Shown here piece after piece: positions 48,745 to 55,682 of a stretch of 64,000 bases of DNA; positions within the stretch are counted from its first letter, which is position 1, and the number at the start of each line of letters is the position of its first letter. A program made the translations under genes and the position numbers. This stretch comes from an uncultured Clostridia bacterium (GTDB taxonomy: Bacteria > Bacillota > Clostridia > TANB77 > CAG-508). The DNA lies in assembly GCA_934122155.1 (NCBI GenBank), contig CAKOVX010000002.1:1437-65436 (forward strand), in the 5' to 3' direction. Below the pieces are notes generated by a model. The model was not told where the DNA came from and ran no database searches. It worked only from the letters and a program-made list of their open reading frames with translations.

Positions 48745-50007
48745 TTATGCATTTACTGCTTTTTTTGCTCTTCCTCTTTTTTTATGCTTTTTTGCTCCTT
48801 TAGTATATGTTCCTTCTGATATATAAGCATTTTTTAAATTCTTCATAGCATCTAATTCTACTAACTTAGCATAATAAAATTGAATAATTTTATAGTATCT
48901 GTTTACATCTTTTCTTAATTTCTTTAAGTCATTTCTTAAGAATAGTACTTGTTTTTCTTTAACATAATCAATATAATTTTTGTCTTTATTTTTTTGAATT
49001 TCTTGATATTGCCTATAAAACTCTTTATAGTTTTCTCTTTCAATAGGTTTATCCCAATAAATTTTAGTAGATAATAGTTTTACATTATATTCTTCAATTA
49101 GCATAATTAGTAAAGAATATGCTTTTTCTTGTTTACGAACTACTTTTGTATCAACAATTAAACTTCTTGTGTCATTTAATAATTTTTCATAGCATTGTTC
49201 AGCAACAATAAGAGGTAAACTGTGTGTAAATAATTTTCTACTTAAGTTTAGTAAAATCATATTTTTTTCAATTTTATCATTTTGGTCTAATTTACCTACT
49301 GTAAATTTTTCAAAGTTCTCATAATCTTCAAGAATTTCTTTGTAAATTTTATTTTCTGGTTCTTTTTTCATTTTTAATGGTAATATATTTTCAATATATT
49401 GCTCTAATGTATCAAATATTTTTGTGTATACTTCATCTTTTGCACTATGTGTTAAATTGTCAGCAAGTTTTATTGAATAATGCTTTAGTAGCCCTTTATA
49501 TAATAATTCCATTTGATATACATATAAATTTTGATATCTTTTTAATAATTGCTCTTTGTTAAGCCCTTCTACTGTTTCATAGTCTAAATTTAATAAATAC
49601 ATTTGCTTTTTGTATTTATATTCTAAATATTCAGTTTCTTTTAGGTGAACTACTGAATAATATGATGATAATGCATTTCTTTCAAATTCACTAGCTGTAT
49701 CACTTTTAACTTTTTTATATATAGAATCCATTATATATTTATCTATTGATTCTAAATATAATGCATATATATCTTCAAACCTTTTAGTAATTGCCTCTTG
49801 TTTTTCTTGGTCTTCTATTTTTTCGTTTGCTTTATAGTTTTCATAAGCTTTTAGTACATTATTTCTTTTTATCGAAATTAGCATTCCATTAATTCCGATT
49901 TTTGTTGGAGTTAATAACTTTGTAATTGTATTGCTAATTTTTGAAAAAAATGTTTTTTCTTGGTATATTCTTAAACTTCTTTCTTCCATGGCATCTGTTC
50001 CTTTCAA
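48745..50007 (-). CDS. hypothetical 420-aa helical protein with a basic C-terminal tail
   Basis: No recognised domain; ends KGAKKHKKRGRAKKAVNA; occupies the slot between yqfD and ybeY where phoH usually lies. Confidence 0.5.
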   Translation of the reverse strand: MKGTDAMEERSLRIYQEKTFFSKISNTITKLLTPTKIGINGMLISIKRNNVLKAYENYKANEKIEDQEKQEAITKRFEDIYALYLESIDKYIMDSIYKKVKSDTASEFERNALSSYYSVVHLKETEYLEYKYKKQMYLLNLDYETVEGLNKEQLLKRYQNLYVYQMELLYKGLLKHYSIKLADNLTHSAKDEVYTKIFDTLEQYIENILPLKMKKEPENKIYKEILEDYENFEKFTVGKLDQNDKIEKNMILLNLSRKLFTHSLPLIVAEQCYEKLLNDTRSLIVDTKVVRKQEKAYSLLIMLIEEYNVKLLSTKIYWDKPIERENYKEFYRQYQEIQKNKDKNYIDYVKEKQVLFLRNDLKKLRKDVNRYYKIIQFYYAKLVELDAMKNLKNAYISEGTYTKGAKKHKKRGRAKKAVNA

Positions 50008-51185
50008 AATACTATTTTTTCTTTAGTCCCGATATTTTCAAGTACTTCGTAAATCACTTCAACTTCAACTTCGTCATTTAATTGACTTGCATTTATTTTT
50101 TTATCTATAATTGATTTATCTTCTATTTGTTCTTTTAATTCTTCTTCTGCTTTTTCAATAGCTAATTGCTTTGCTTCTTCAAAAGTATATTGTACTTCTT
50201 GATTTTCGTACTCTTGATATGTTTTTTTATTTATTTCTATTGGCAGATAAAAATTTGAAAATAGTTTTAGTTTTTTACTCGTCTCTATTGTATCATAATT
50301 TTGAAATTTTGGAACCCCTTTTAGTAAATTTATTTCAAAATTATTTATCTTTACGGAATATTTATTTTTCACGTTTCCTGTTTGGATTTTTTTTGTCTGA
50401 TTTAGTTTTAATCTTTCTTTTTTTGAATACCATACTTTTGCTTGTACTTCGCCATTTGCATGTACATAATGAATTCCTGTAAATTGTCCTTCAAGCCACC
50501 CTTGTACTAGTATTGTTCCTTTTGTAACTATATCTCCTTCTTTTACTACGGCTATGCCATTTTGCGCACTTATTTTAACTATCATTGCGTCTTTTGTTGC
50601 AACAATATTACAATACTCTTGTTCTTGTATGATATCTGGTTTTAAATCTGCCTCCACTACTTTTACAATAGCATTTGTGCCTTTTATCTCTATCCCCATC
50701 CAAGCCAAGTCATCTCTTTTTAGTCTAACCTTATCTATTATTCTCTTAGTGTTTAAATTTATTTTAGTTGTTCCAATTTTAAAATTATTTTCTTCTAAAT
50801 CTCGTAGAATTTCCTCTGATGAAATTTTGTCATTTCCAGTTACTTCAATATTCCATATAAAATTTGACAATGTTATAACTGCAAATATTAAAAGAATAAA
50901 AAATATAGCAAAAATCTTTCTTTTTTTATATTTATGTAGTATAAATGGCATTCCCTTTTTTTCTTGTATTTTTACTCTGCATTTTGTTTTTTGAGCAATA
51001 TTTTTTATTCTTTTAAAATCTTTAATTCCAATGTTAACTTTTATAATTGTAGAATGTTTTCTTTGCATATTCCACAAAAATATTTTTTGGTTATTACAAA
51101 TATTTATAAATCTTTCAATAAAATATCCCTCTACTACAATCGAAACGTAACCAAAAATATAACTTAATAGTATTTTGAAATACAT
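50004..51185 (-). CDS. yqfD: sporulation protein YqfD
   Basis: 393 aa with TM segments; conserved position after yqfC. Confidence 0.8.
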   Translation of the reverse strand: MYFKILLSYIFGYVSIVVEGYFIERFINICNNQKIFLWNMQRKHSTIIKVNIGIKDFKRIKNIAQKTKCRVKIQEKKGMPFILHKYKKRKIFAIFFILLIFAVITLSNFIWNIEVTGNDKISSEEILRDLEENNFKIGTTKINLNTKRIIDKVRLKRDDLAWMGIEIKGTNAIVKVVEADLKPDIIQEQEYCNIVATKDAMIVKISAQNGIAVVKEGDIVTKGTILVQGWLEGQFTGIHYVHANGEVQAKVWYSKKERLKLNQTKKIQTGNVKNKYSVKINNFEINLLKGVPKFQNYDTIETSKKLKLFSNFYLPIEINKKTYQEYENQEVQYTFEEAKQLAIEKAEEELKEQIEDKSIIDKKINASQLNDEVEVEVIYEVLENIGTKEKIVF

Positions 51186-51197
51186 TTTTTCCTCCTA

Positions 51198-51503
51198 TTA
51201 CTCATCTGTAATTGTCTCAAAATCAATACTTTCTATCTTTCCTGTAACAAGTAAATCATCTGTTGTCATTTCTTCTAAGTAAAGTTCATATCCATTTATA
51301 TTTAAAATTCCAATATATGTACTAATTCTAATATAAAAGTCCTGGTATTCTAGTATTCCCTTGTAGTTTTCTATTAACATTTTTTTAAAGCCAATTACAG
51401 TTACTTTTGGCAAATTAGTGGATATTTCTGGTGGAATTTCTAGTATTCGGCTTATTTTACTTTGTATACTTTTATCTTTTTTAGAACGCTTTTTCAAATT
51501 CAC
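51198..51503 (-). CDS. yqfC: sporulation protein YqfC
   Basis: About 100-aa YqfC family, upstream of yqfD. Confidence 0.8.
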   Translation of the reverse strand: MNLKKRSKKDKSIQSKISRILEIPPEISTNLPKVTVIGFKKMLIENYKGILEYQDFYIRISTYIGILNINGYELYLEEMTTDDLLVTGKIESIDFETITDE

Positions 51504-51545
51504 ATCATCCCTTTCATCTGTTAAAACTTAATTATTCTCTAGCTT

Positions 51546-52358
51546 TTATCTTTGAAAATCATCTAAAGTTCTAAACTCATATCCCATTTTTTTAATTTCT
51601 TTAATACAATAGTCTAATATATTGCTATTATCTTTTGAAGTTGCATGTAATAGCATAACTGCTCCTGGATGTATATTCTTTAAAACCATTTTTTTGCCAT
51701 AGTCTTCTCTTCCTTGTTTATTTTTGTCCCAATCATCATAAGCAAAACTCCACATAACTGTTTTGTATCCTAATGTATTAGTATATGCAACTGTTCTTTC
51801 ACTATATTCTCCTTTTGGTGGGCGAATATATTTCATTTCATAATTGAACTTTTGATAAACTGCTGTGTGTAATTCCATTACTTCTTTTTGTATTTGTTCA
51901 TTTGTTAAATCTGGCATACTTTTGTGATTTACTGTGTGATTTCCAACAGTATGGCCTTCATCTAGCATTTGTTTTACTAAATTTGATGCTGTATTCAAAT
52001 AATGAGCTGTTATAAAAAATGTAGCTGGAACCTGGTTTTCTTTTAATACTGCTAATATTTTTGGTGTATAACCTGCTTCATATCCATTGTCAAAAGTAAG
52101 GTATACATATTTTGAATTCTTGTTTCCAATAGCAATTCCATCATATTTGTCTATTATTCTTTTGTTTACACTTCCCAAGTCTGGTTGTTCATTGTTATTA
52201 GCTCTTTTTATTCCCCATCCAATTTTTTTCTCACTTGTTACATTAGCACTAGTTTGAACTGTTTTATTAAAGTTAGTTACAGATATTGAAAATATAAATG
52301 CTATTAATATAAAAGATATAATTATAATGACGTTTGATTTTCCTTTCATTTTTTGCAT
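51546..52358 (-). CDS. polysaccharide deacetylase-family sporulation protein (PdaA/PdaB-like)
   Basis: NodB motifs TFDNGY and HTVNH; signal-anchor. Confidence 0.85.
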   Translation of the reverse strand: MQKMKGKSNVIIIISFILIAFIFSISVTNFNKTVQTSANVTSEKKIGWGIKRANNNEQPDLGSVNKRIIDKYDGIAIGNKNSKYVYLTFDNGYEAGYTPKILAVLKENQVPATFFITAHYLNTASNLVKQMLDEGHTVGNHTVNHKSMPDLTNEQIQKEVMELHTAVYQKFNYEMKYIRPPKGEYSERTVAYTNTLGYKTVMWSFAYDDWDKNKQGREDYGKKMVLKNIHPGAVMLLHATSKDNSNILDYCIKEIKKMGYEFRTLDDFQR

Positions 52359-52559
52359 TCCTCCATTCTTTATCGTAATTTCTATTTACTCGACATTGAC
52401 ATTTTATAAAATTTAGCTTGACAATATAATTTATTTGAATTATATTTAATATTAGACGTCTGGAAATTTTTAGGTAATTTTATGTTATTTTGTCGAATTA
52501 CTACATTACGATTCTATCACCTTTTTATATTTATATATATTATATGGAGGTAAAATATA

Positions 52560-53266
52560 TGTTAGATTTTGTACTATGTGATGACAACTTTAATGTGCTA
52601 AATAAATTAGAAAAAACATTAGAAACAATTTTTATTGATAAGAATTTTGATGCACGTATTGTTCTTAGTACAACAGCCCCTGAAGAGTTAATTAATTTTA
52701 TGAAACACAACACTGCTCAAGTAGTAATATTAGATATTGATTTAAGATCAAATATTTCAGGGTTAGATCTAGCAAATATGATTCGTAACAAGGATAAAAA
52801 TATTTATATTATTTTTACTACCGGTCATCTAGAATATGGACTAATGGCTTATAAGTACAAAACATTTGATTACATACCTAAGCCTATTACTAGAGAACGT
52901 TTAGAAGATACTATTACTAGACTGTTTGAAGATGTATCTGGTTGCCAAACCGATTTTATAAGATTAGATAATAATAAAACCATAATTAAGCAAGATTCTA
53001 TTCAATACATACAAAAAGATGGAATGAAAACTATATTTTATACAGACACACGTGAATATGAAACAAATAGTTCATTTAAAGCTATTATGCAACAGCTGCC
53101 TGAACAATTTATGCAATGTCATAAATCCTATATTGTAAATACTAGCAAAATTGCTAGTATAGATTCTTCAAATAATACTATTGTATTAAATACAGCAGAT
53201 AAAAACAGCAAATGTTTTATTGGTCCAAAATATAAAAATAAACTTATGGAGGTTTTTAATCATTAA
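52560..53266 (+). CDS. agrA: LytTR-family response regulator (AgrA-like)
   Basis: Receiver domain plus LytTR DNA-binding domain; GGAGG RBS before the ATG at 52560; the ORF-track start at 52490 lacks an RBS. Confidence 0.85.
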
Positions 53267-53291
53267 CATTTTCCAAACAATCTGGACAGCA

Positions 53292-54617
53292 ATGACAACG
53301 CAGAATGAAATGGCATCAATAATAGTATTCTTTCCAATGTACTTTATTGATACTTTTGTAAACATGCTATTTTTCACAACTGTTTTTAACATTTCTTCTT
53401 CTAAAAAATCTAAAATTATTTATGTAATATGTATGGGTCTAATAGCCTTTTCATCTAGAACTTTTATACCAGATCCTTATGGTACATTTATTAATATGAT
53501 CTCTATTATACTTTTAATTAAATTCATTTTGAAAACTACTTGGTTAAAATCTTTCTTATCAGAATTTGTAGTAGTTGTATTAAGTATTATCTTAGAGCTA
53601 TTTTTACAAAAATTCTGTTTAGAAGTTCTTCAGATTTCATATAATTCAATAATGTACGTTCCAATATATAGATGTGGTCTTGCTTTAATAATTTATACTT
53701 TAGTTTATATCCTATATAGAATAATCAAATATTTTAAATTTTCTATTGACTTAGAAAATATGACTAAGAAAAACAAAGTTTTATTCATATTGAATTCTAT
53801 TTTAGGTATTATTGCCATTGCAACTCAAATATACTTAATGGCTTTTTATAGTAGTAATATGCCAATTATAATCACTTTGGTAAGTATTGTAAGTCTACTA
53901 GCATATTTCTTCATTAGTATATACAACATGTTAAGTATTAATAAGTTAAATACCACAACTAGAGATTTAGAAGAAGCTCAGTTATATAATAAAACTTTAA
54001 CAATTTTACATGATAGTATTAGAGGTTTTAAACATGATTTTCACAATATTGTTCAAGGCATTGGTGGTTATGCTGATAGAGGAGACTTAGAAGGTTTAAA
54101 GAAATATTATAAACAACTTATGTTAGATTGTAGTCGTACAAATAATTTAACAGCATTAAATCCTGAAGTTATAAATAATCCTGCTATTTACAATATTATG
54201 GCTACAAAATATCATAAAGCAGATGAAATTGGTGTACAAATTAACTTAGGCATTTTTATGGATCTGAATGAAATTGAAAAACATATGAAGATTTATGAAT
54301 TTACTAGAATTTTAGGTATACTTTTAGATAATGCTATTGAAGCTGCTTCTGAATGTGATGAAAAAGTAATTCATGTAAGTTTTAGAAAAGAAGAAAATAG
54401 ACATCGTTTACTTATGATTATAGAAAATACATATAAAAATAAAGATGTTGATATAGATAAAATTTTTGAAAAAGATTTTTCTACCAAATCAAAGAAGACT
54501 AATAGTGGACTTGGTTTGTGGGAAGTTAGACAAGTATTAAAGAAAAACAATAACCTAAATTTATATACTACTAAAAATGAAGAATTCTTTTCTCAACAAC
54601 TTGAAATATATTTTTAA
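53292..54617 (+). CDS. agrC: AgrC-like (HPK10) membrane sensor histidine kinase
   Basis: Six to seven TM helices, HDFHNIVQGI H-box, GHKL ATPase; start is approximate because the ORF overlaps the agrA end. Confidence 0.8.
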   Translation: MTTQNEMASIIVFFPMYFIDTFVNMLFFTTVFNISSSKKSKIIYVICMGLIAFSSRTFIPDPYGTFINMISIILLIKFILKTTWLKSFLSEFVVVVLSIILELFLQKFCLEVLQISYNSIMYVPIYRCGLALIIYTLVYILYRIIKYFKFSIDLENMTKKNKVLFILNSILGIIAIATQIYLMAFYSSNMPIIITLVSIVSLLAYFFISIYNMLSINKLNTTTRDLEEAQLYNKTLTILHDSIRGFKHDFHNIVQGIGGYADRGDLEGLKKYYKQLMLDCSRTNNLTALNPEVINNPAIYNIMATKYHKADEIGVQINLGIFMDLNEIEKHMKIYEFTRILGILLDNAIEAASECDEKVIHVSFRKEENRHRLLMIIENTYKNKDVDIDKIFEKDFSTKSKKTNSGLGLWEVRQVLKKNNNLNLYTTKNEEFFSQQLEIYF

Positions 54618-54624
54618 AAATTCA

Positions 54625-54665
54625 AAAAAGAGGTACCTGAGCAAACTCAATACCTCTTTTTTGTT
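54625..54665. terminator. bidirectional terminator between agrC and agrD
   Basis: aagaggta...tacctctt hairpin with runs on both sides. Confidence 0.6.
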
Positions 54666-54709
54666 CGTCGTTTTAAGGAAATATTTATATAATTATTTTG
54701 ACTTCAGGA

Positions 54710-54829
54710 CTAGTCTTTTTTAATTAAAGATGCAGGCATTTTTGGTTGATGGATAAGCCCCAAAACAAAGCATGCAGTATTTGTAGATTTTGCATATTTT
54801 TCTGCTAATTTAGCTAATAATTTTACCAT
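54710..54829 (-). CDS. agrD: AgrD autoinducing-peptide precursor (39 aa)
   Basis: MVKLLAKLAEKYAKSTNTACFVLGLIHQPKMPASLIKKD; GGAGGA RBS 7 nt upstream; directly downstream of agrB; Cys followed by an HQP..P.SL motif like clostridial AgrD; under 60 aa so absent from the ORF track. Confidence 0.65.
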   Translation of the reverse strand: MVKLLAKLAEKYAKSTNTACFVLGLIHQPKMPASLIKKD

Positions 54830-54893
54830 TTTAAAATCCTCCTTATATTTTTATTTTTCTATTATAAACATTGCCGGCCAATGTATTACAATC

Positions 54894-55514
54894 TTAAATT
54901 GTTTCTTCTGCATATACTTCGTAGCCATGTTTGTTATTTGTTAGTTTATATGAAATAGGTAGTACTGTTAAATTTTGTAAAAACATTCCGTAAATTATCA
55001 TGTATGAAAATTGTTTATATGGGCTAAATATTATAATTGAGAGTAAAATAACTAATGCAACATAAGCTTTTATCTTTTTAATTTTTCTTTCTTTTTTACT
55101 TAATATTGGCATATTTTCTGTGTCTGCTGGAGCATATTTAGTAATTATAAATATACTAAATATTGCTATAATTCCTGCAAAAATGTATATAATAAATTCT
55201 TGAGAAAATTGTATATATTGAGATAATATTATTGGTCCTAGATATAAAATGCTTGTTGTAATCATACAACCTAAATGAGTTTTTAAATGAAAGCCTCCTG
55301 TAAAACTTCTATATGGAGATATTAGAGAAAATAACAATATAGTTTGCCACCCCATATTTAGTAAAAATCCGATGATAAATAATATTAAAACTTTAGGTAA
55401 CTCACCAAAAATTAGCTTAATTCCAAAATTAATAATTAATTCTCTTTCTTCATCAATGTCTGGCATTTTTGCTTTTATTTTTTCTGTTATCCAATCACAA
55501 AATTTATCTATCAT
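54894..55514 (-). CDS. agrB: accessory gene regulator protein B (AgrD-processing membrane peptidase)
   Basis: About 200-aa polytopic protein with conserved His and Cys (FHLKTHLGC). Confidence 0.85.
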   Translation of the reverse strand: MIDKFCDWITEKIKAKMPDIDEERELIINFGIKLIFGELPKVLILFIIGFLLNMGWQTILLFSLISPYRSFTGGFHLKTHLGCMITTSILYLGPIILSQYIQFSQEFIIYIFAGIIAIFSIFIITKYAPADTENMPILSKKERKIKKIKAYVALVILLSIIIFSPYKQFSYMIIYGMFLQNLTVLPISYKLTNNKHGYEVYAEETI

Positions 55515-55682
55515 TTTTCTTTTCCTCTTTCTTTGTTATCTGTATTCTATAACTTTAATTCACAAAAAAATAAAAACTTTATAAAAATATCAAAATCACA
55601 TGCGAAAAATGTCGTTTTTTGTTTTGTGTGCATTTTTAATATTTTCATAAAGTTTAGTTCAATTTTACAAATATAACTCTAT

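Follow-up and report, generated by a model that had tools for sequence, protein, structure and literature searches.

Gene content and organization of the locus

The window analysed here (a stretch of 64,000 nucleotides, 64 kb, of contig CAKOVX010000002.1 from an uncultured bacterium of the Clostridia; all positions are those of the window) contains a cluster of four genes, agrA, agrC, agrD and agrB, that resembles the agr loci for peptide quorum sensing. The features of the cluster are collected in Table 1. The agrA-agrC pair lies on the plus strand and the agrB-agrD pair on the minus strand, and the two pairs converge on a hairpin that is preceded by an A-run and followed by a T-run (fold z-score of −3.85; none of 200 shuffled sequences folded as well). 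This bears out the initial annotation, made from the DNA letters, in which a regulator and a kinase converge on agrBD across a shared terminator. The hairpin was missed by a simple terminator scan because of its long loop. A long-stemmed hairpin (∼12–24 bp) occupies the same position in 16 inspected relatives despite differing sequence, and the median fold energy of the agrC/agrD spacer was −20.8 kcal/mol in 79 relatives.

Table 1. Features of the agr locus, in window coordinates.
Feature	Position	Strand	Description
Likely agrAC promoter	52418..52446	+	TTGACA-17 nt-TATATT; best promoter-like site of the region (11/12 positions)
TGTCGAA in agrA leader	52491..52497	+	candidate Spo0A box
agrA	52559..53266	+	REC + LytTR response regulator, 235 aa
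Ancestral agrC start codon	53262..53264	+	ATT here, ATG elsewhere; T at 53264 also forms the TAA ending agrA
agrC	53292..54617	+	AgrC-type sensor kinase, 441 aa counted from first remaining ATG; sensor ∼53292–54000, kinase 54000–54617
Two-way intrinsic terminator common to agrC and agrD	54623..54663	both	fold with flanking A-run and T-run
Conserved 14-mer in agrD 3' untranslated region	54670..54683	-	TATTTCCTTAAAAC; exact in 33/80 species loci
agrD	54710..54829	-	39-aa precursor: leader 1–19, Cys20, variable core 21–26, follower 27–39 (HQPKMPASLIKKD)
agrD Shine-Dalgarno sequence	54837..54842	-	GGAGGA
Conserved agrB-agrD stem-loop	54861..54892	-	loop GCCGG, often GCCGGC
agrB	54894..55514	-	membrane peptidase/cyclase, 206 aa, PF04647
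Candidate -10 of agrBD promoter	55544..55549	-	TAGAAT here, TAAAAT in relatives; conserved alignment block
Candidate LytTR (AgrA) site	55578..55607	-	9-bp direct repeats 12 bp apart, TTTCGCATG and TTTTATAAA

Conservation was assessed in 80 species loci (individual loci carry L numbers), obtained by an AgrB-alignment scan of one genome per species; the AgrB identity to the window ranged from 41% to 86%. All 80 are from uncultured gut Clostridia, with records under Clostridium sp. CAG:508, CAG:567, CAG:273 and CAG:354 and Candidatus Merdicola. The flanks are a pseudouridine synthase gene (rluX) on one side and a polysaccharide deacetylase gene, then yabP and yqfD, on the other. The order rluX > agrB > agrD > < agrC < agrA, then usually pda, is kept wherever the contigs reach, and only L053 lacked an agrC match in its available DNA. 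Two loci carry additional genes: a tandem pair of AgrC-like kinase genes is present in L067 (5898–8694), and a 282-aa open reading frame (ORF) is inserted between agrD and agrC in L062 (849–2321).

AgrB matched Pfam family PF04647 with an E-value of 5.6e-41 (140 bits against a cut-off of 23); no solved structures matching it by sequence were found. Residues H76 and C83 align with H77 and C84 of Staphylococcus aureus AgrB (the S. aureus sequence was verified by look-up) and are invariant among 15 relatives; they are the likely catalytic pair. AgrA matched the Pfam domains LytTR (5e-20) and Response_reg (1e-14). Its ATG, which lies 8 nt after a GGAGG, begins at 52559, one base away from the start given in the initial annotation, and D59, read from the sequence within the motif VVILDIDL, is the likely phospho-acceptor. 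The kinase domain of AgrC matched HATPase_c_5 (8e-20), and the kinase half aligned with S. aureus AgrC (PDB 6e52, E = 6e-21), including the H-box (RGFKHDFHNI versus RKFRHDYVNI); a hydropathy scan gave about 6–7 hydrophobic segments within residues 10–210. The Pfam matches and the 6e52 alignment thus agree with the HPK10-type kinase and LytTR regulator described initially for the plus strand. The NCBIfam AgrC model was matched at 8e-32 with 111 bits, below its equivalog cut-off of 500, as expected for a distant member scored against a staphylococcal equivalog.

The locus had been called complete, and all four genes are indeed present, with the caveat that the normal start codon of agrC is mutated in this strain. 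The ancestral agrC ATG lies within the 3' end of agrA. Here position 53264 has changed from G to T, which turned the lineage-wide ATG into ATT and at the same time shortened AgrA from 249 to 235 residues; the 249-aa form is the one found in relatives and in other strains of this species. In all 15 other aligned loci, including L003 of the same species, GGAGG and 9 nt precede an ATG for agrC, and L004 and L092–L100 likewise matched with the ATG. The T is found in the window, L001, L002 and L005, and the G in L003, L004, L092–L095 and L098–L100. Since the ATG is lost, AgrC would start either at the ATT or at the next ATG (53292), which lacks a good ribosome site, and sensing may be weakened in this strain because of the ATT. 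It is possible, though on the doubtful side, that the strain still makes the signal and senses it poorly or not at all, with AgrC produced at a low level from the ATT or without its first 10 residues; the locus would then represent a naturally occurring variant with attenuated agr, of the sort that is frequent in staphylococci. The presence of the ATG in every other locus aligned or checked, the confinement of the T allele to four loci, the poor ribosome site at 53292 and the shortening of AgrA by the same change argue for such an attenuation. However, an ATT behind a strong Shine-Dalgarno sequence can start translation, albeit less efficiently, the LytTR domain is complete in the 235-aa AgrA (profile positions 5–97 of 98), the remainder of agrC is intact, and the T allele occurs in three independent metagenome samples and thus persists. 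A split agrC in L004 was considered as a second natural lesion and rejected, as it is merely a run of N in the scaffold.

The AgrD precursor and its predicted ring

The initial annotation had placed a 39-codon ORF with a GGAGGA ribosome-binding site immediately downstream of agrB. Its coordinates, its translation (MVKLLAKLAEKYAKSTNTACFVLGLIHQPKMPASLIKKD, an exact match) and the ribosome-binding site, which is read from the sequence 7 nt ahead of the ATG, were confirmed; AAGGAGG or AAGGGGG is conserved at this place in the relatives. The ORF does follow agrB, but a 64-nt spacer with a conserved hairpin lies in between. It also proved not to be unannotated, as the exact protein is present in public collections, where gene callers have called it in ENA human gut metagenome assemblies, and a GenBank member of the same family (MCI9177652.1) is named 'cyclic lactone autoinducer peptide'.

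AgrD scored 28.7 bits against the NCBI curated model TIGR04223 (cut-off 19). A homologue of the small ORF, and never an unrelated ORF of the kind that the initial annotation had named as evidence against it, follows agrB in 80 of the 80 species-level relatives, with a length of 39 aa in 79 of them. The consensus of the 80 sequences is MLKLLAKVAEKYAKSTNTA-C-x6-HQPKMPASLIKKD. Cys20 is present in 97% and Gly24 in 88% of the sequences, H27, Q28, P29 and P32 are invariant, and the entropy is 1.9–2.5 bits at positions 21–23, 25 and 26 and at most 1.5 bits elsewhere; 75 distinct cores occur among the 80 sequences. The amphipathic character of the leader shows in its hydrophobic moment, 0.60 compared to a shuffle mean of 0.26 (0.60 is reached by 0.5% of the shuffles). 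The hydrophobic moment, the TIGR04223 match and the conservation thus agree with the pattern recognized earlier (amphipathic leader, single Cys, recognition tail). A phmmer search of 1.84 billion representatives gave 52 matches at E ≤ 0.001, of which 50 belonged to the same family, and therefore did not provide a survey of ring lengths across AgrD proteins. In L071 and L087 a Ser replaces Cys20 (TASTLFVIWHQP and TASFIFTIWHQP, respectively), so that lactone rather than thiolactone signals are predicted for these two loci.

The likely end of the ring was estimated by comparison with known precursors. Those of S. aureus, Clostridium perfringens, Listeria monocytogenes and Enterococcus faecalis were verified by exact database look-up; PMC12312760 gives the corresponding mature peptides in its Table 1. 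The first three are in the database under AgrD or cyclic-lactone-autoinducer names, and for C. perfringens the full 44-aa precursor containing CLWFT and HQPEEPKSL is an exact entry named AgrD, which bears out the comparison made in the initial annotation. The sequence of E. faecalis FsrD is in the database as well, under the bare label 'hypothetical protein' and in a cluster with FsrB/AgrB entries. Candidate sequences for Clostridium acetobutylicum AgrD and Lactobacillus plantarum LamD corresponded to no exact database sequence and were dropped from the analysis. When AgrD is aligned with the four verified precursors, P32 is the only invariant non-Met column, and each of the four rings ends exactly 6 residues ahead of this proline. 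Applied to the window, this spacing places the cut between Ile26 and His27 and would yield the ring CFVLGLI.

The initial annotation had proposed a thiolactone starting at Cys20, either CFVLG or a longer ring; of these the longer one is favoured, and we lean towards a ring of seven residues, Cys20–Ile26. The variability along the precursor is consistent with this end point, as the positions after Cys20 vary up to 26 and the follower is nearly invariant from His27 onwards, and it is also compatible with rare family members in which the stretch before HQP is shorter by one residue (CVLIIF-HQP and CVLLFF-HQP). Calculated [M+H]+ values are 746.427 (CFVLGLI), 633.343 (a six-residue ring), 520.259 (CFVLG) and 817.464 or 918.512 (a ring carrying an A or TA tail). 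A classical five-residue thiolactone CFVLG, cut after Gly24 and with Leu25-Ile26 as part of the follower, is unlikely. Most characterised agr peptides do have five-residue rings (PMC12312760, Table 1), and the 88% conserved Gly24 could mark a fixed ring end. However, the ring would then end 8 residues before the invariant proline instead of 6, positions 25–26 are as variable as positions 21–23, and the family members that are one residue shorter have no Gly; moreover, five residues is no rule in clostridia, for which mass spectrometry has shown six-residue rings (PMC8251862). The clostridial peptides found so far have no N-terminal tail and rearrange to lactams (PMC8251862).

Receptor pairing, candidate AgrA site and proposed circuit

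The sensor half of AgrC is far more variable across species than the kinase half. For L010 and L011, the kinase halves are 98%, the AgrA proteins 96% and the AgrB proteins 95–96% identical, the sensors are only 59% identical, and the peptide cores differ. With kinase identity controlled for, sensor identity tracks core identity over 36 loci (rho of 0.32, a value reached in none of 300 permutations). A similar relation is seen within the species of the window, whose contigs carry either a CFVLGLI core (window, L001–L008 and L095) or a CVIWGLI core (19 contigs; L092–L094 and L096–L101). A comparison of L003 with L092 gave 100% DNA identity through the flanks, agrA, agrB and the kinase half of agrC, and 57–85% over the sensor region (53300–54000); three agrD codons differ (window 54752–54760, FVL versus VIW). 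In the AgrC protein the sensors of these two loci are 62% and the cytoplasmic halves 99% identical, and an identical AgrB protein accompanies both peptide alleles. On this genetic evidence, the convergent kinase is the cognate receptor of the peptide, and the two alleles form specificity groups of the kind that agr has in S. aureus.

In principle, the kinase and regulator could form an unrelated two-component system that happens to lie beside an orphan agrBD pair: C. perfringens encodes its receptor elsewhere, orphan agrBD loci occur in clostridia (PMC4453554; PMC12312760), and the two pairs are separate transcription units here. However, this is very improbable given that core and sensor switch together within a species on a 100% identical background, co-diverge across species and are kept in the same arrangement across the 80 loci.

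The agrD codons were compared with those of the window. In the follower 255 differences are synonymous and 41 change an amino acid (86% synonymous); the corresponding numbers for the core are 129 and 289. Judged from such codon differences, the leader and tail of AgrD are under purifying selection. That the small ORF is an untranslated chance frame, as might be argued from the many random short ORFs in this AT-rich region and from the lack of a Pfam match for agrD, is practically untenable, since the TIGR04223 score exceeds its cut-off, the frame, length and Shine-Dalgarno sequence are kept in the 80 relatives, the follower changes mostly synonymously and the alternative-frame ORFs overlapping agrD are not conserved, a pattern of conservation that already refutes it.

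The initial annotation suggested a search for LytTR direct repeats upstream of agrB and agrA; a candidate pair was found upstream of agrB and none upstream of agrA. The alignment of the region upstream of agrB shows the conserved −10-like box of Table 1 and no conserved −35, and 28 nt further up are repeats with the consensus TTTCRTAAA and TTTYATAWA. In most loci this pair, which has a 21-bp period, is found 60–72 nt ahead of the agrB start codon. Such an arrangement is customary for LytTR sites, whose direct repeats stand 12–13 bp apart. A pair score of at least 15 was obtained in 40% of the loci, in 1.7% of the shuffles and in 0% of the agrA-upstream regions. A second, inverted repeat pair lies nearer to rluX (∼55620–55665, minus strand; for example TTTATGAAA), and on the reverse strand scores of at least 15 occur in 61% of the loci. 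This pair recalls the two AgrA box pairs between the P2 and P3 promoters of S. aureus; it could drive a divergent transcript antisense to the 3' end of rluX.

Overall, we consider it very likely that this is a chromosomal system for peptide quorum sensing of the agr type, arranged in two convergent operons, in which AgrB makes a ring, likely CFVLGLI, that is sensed by AgrC-AgrA, with AgrA probably raising agrBD expression. The assignment to the agr type is supported, at the level of sequence, by the family models, the conserved residues, the synteny, the selection on codons and the co-variation of core and sensor. In the proposed circuit, AgrB (with H76 and C83) would recognise the follower HQPKMPASLIKKD, remove it and couple the C-terminus so exposed to the Cys20 thiol; the cut would most likely fall between Ile26 and His27 and give the seven-residue ring Cys-Phe-Val-Leu-Gly-Leu-Ile. 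Should the leader be cleaved off directly at Cys20, as happens in other clostridia, a rearrangement of the ring to a head-to-tail cyclic peptide would follow. The multi-pass AgrC sensor would bind the peptide, His248 would be phosphorylated and the phosphate would be passed to Asp59 of AgrA, which would then probably bind the 9-bp direct repeats upstream of agrB and raise transcription of agrBD. The agrAC pair would be transcribed from its own near-consensus promoter.

Several points weigh against this picture. The organism is uncultured and the locus is known here from its DNA. The loss of the agrC ATG means that the circuit may not respond normally in this strain. The seven-residue ring is deduced from a spacing rule in four systems together with the pattern of variability; positions 25–26 are hydrophobic-only and could be a loosely constrained linker, and the macrocycles described so far have 5 or 6 residues, the largest 9, with none of 7 listed (PMC12312760, a primer from 2025). 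The repeats upstream of agrB are AT-rich and similar matches are common; a scan of the window for these repeats gave 18 matches versus 9.6 expected and was not usable as a regulon search. The agrA-upstream regions are without the repeats, so that autoregulation of the sensing arm is not indicated.

Three side findings seem worth recording: the probable seven-residue ring, the within-species groups with their separated variable islands, and the start-codon mutation. The wider proposal, on which we are evenly balanced, is that the lineage may use a seven-residue macrocycle C-x3-G-x2 in nearly species-specific variants, with at least one species having two specificity groups made from two separate islands and served by one AgrB. 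The agr systems are well understood in pathogens and little studied in uncultured gut commensals; here one occupies a fixed chromosomal site beside sporulation genes, and nearly each species has its own peptide core. This makes about 75 natural peptide/receptor pairs available for studying ligand discrimination by AgrC, and in addition two alleles of a single species whose only differences are three residues of the peptide and the sensor domain. A seven-residue ring, if true, would widen the known range of ring sizes made by AgrB, and synthetic peptides could serve as trial cues for sporulation or growth in culturing attempts.

Relation to known systems and minor features

All in all, the system is an agr system of the ordinary kind, and annotated examples of its gene layout already exist in public genomes. 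The convergence reported in the initial annotation holds, and its non-canonical order is not new: on plasmids of Clostridium tagluense and Clostridium estertheticum (NZ_CP086156, NZ_CP086251 and NZ_CP087101) the order is agrB > agrD > < GHKL kinase < LytTR regulator, and the Prokaryotic Genome Annotation Pipeline (PGAP) of RefSeq annotates agrD there as an AgrD-family cyclic lactone autoinducer peptide. These loci differ from the present one in that their AgrB is only ∼29–31% identical, they lie on plasmids and not at one fixed place of a chromosome, their agrB and agrD genes overlap and hence leave no spacer hairpin, and the cores are one residue shorter (CIGYGL and CLGIAL before EEPK(M/I)P). 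Reviews have noted before that agrBD and agrCA may form separate operons in clostridia (PMC12312760). A literature search for the convergent agrBD/agrCA layout found no description of it; the text of the papers on the 'agrACDB' locus of Clostridioides difficile does not give strand orientation.

The locus shares with the agr system of S. aureus the same four components, with aligned AgrB His/Cys, AgrC H-box and AgrA Asp59, a three-part precursor in which the ring ends 6 residues before the conserved proline, and within-species groups in which the AgrD core and the AgrC sensor vary. It is not staphylococcal agr in the strict sense, which has a single agrBDCA operon and a divergent RNAIII, whereas the pairs are convergent here; an RNAIII-like RNA was not found in the Rfam scan of the window. 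In S. aureus the variable parts are adjacent, whereas here ∼700 bp of conserved kinase-coding DNA separate the agrD core from the agrC sensor because the operons converge. Also, AgrB is not variable here, as the identical protein serves both alleles, and the ring has 5 residues in S. aureus compared to the predicted 7.

In C. acetobutylicum agrBD and agrCA are likewise separate transcription units (PMC3754575; PMC12312760), and the ring exceeds five residues (CVLVTL, six) and carries no N-terminal tail (PMC8251862); the system is linked to sporulation, and its peptide is not the same. The C. perfringens follower has HQP, two residues and P as here (HQPEEPKSL versus HQPKMPASL), but its ring (CLWFT) has five residues, the locus has no kinase or regulator, and VirS acts as sensor (PMC7492741). 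The fsr system of E. faecalis (peptide GBAP) belongs to the agr family, has a ring of more than five residues and follows the six-residue rule from ring end to proline; it differs in making a nine-residue lactone through Ser and in the order fsrABDC (PMC3754575; PMC12312760).

The spacer between agrB and agrD contains the conserved stem-loop of Table 1. In an alignment of 68 loci 94.3% of the cells were paired, compared to 27–53% in slid controls, and 10 of 12 pairs showed compensatory changes on both sides. No U-run follows the stem-loop; it may therefore act in RNA processing or stability and in this way set the ratio of AgrD to AgrB. Its resemblance to the Rfam family cow-rumen-4, the only Rfam match within the agr locus, was rejected, as the score of 28.5 bits is below the threshold of 48.5 and the shape is a generic hairpin followed by a Shine-Dalgarno sequence. 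Downstream of agrD, TATTTCCTTAAAAC is unique in the window and occurs once in each locus that has it, invariably on the strand of agrD; in the minimum-free-energy and centroid folds alike, a pairing with the Shine-Dalgarno sequence of agrD is predicted for it.

On the agrA side, the TTGACA of the likely promoter is present in 69 of 71 related loci. The heptamer TGTCGAA, which matches the consensus of the Spo0A box and to which Spo0A might bind, has only 2 copies in the window, and in 29 of the 71 loci it is found exactly ∼70 nt downstream of the −35. A conserved block of the agrA leader, TAATTGGAAATTTTTAGGTAAT, resembles two 11-bp repeats (52455–52500). TTCGACA, a copy of the heptamer in reverse orientation, is located on the upstream side of the −35 in 22 of the 71 loci, and the window has CTCGACA there (52389–52396). 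On the minus strand, the sporulation-associated genes yqfD and yabP and the polysaccharide deacetylase gene (50004–52358) directly adjoin the agr locus, and this neighbourhood is retained in most related loci whose contigs reach so far. Outside the locus, the only family that reached its threshold in the Rfam scan of the window was the glmS ribozyme (RF00234; 59699–59857, plus strand), with 86 bits against a threshold of 37.

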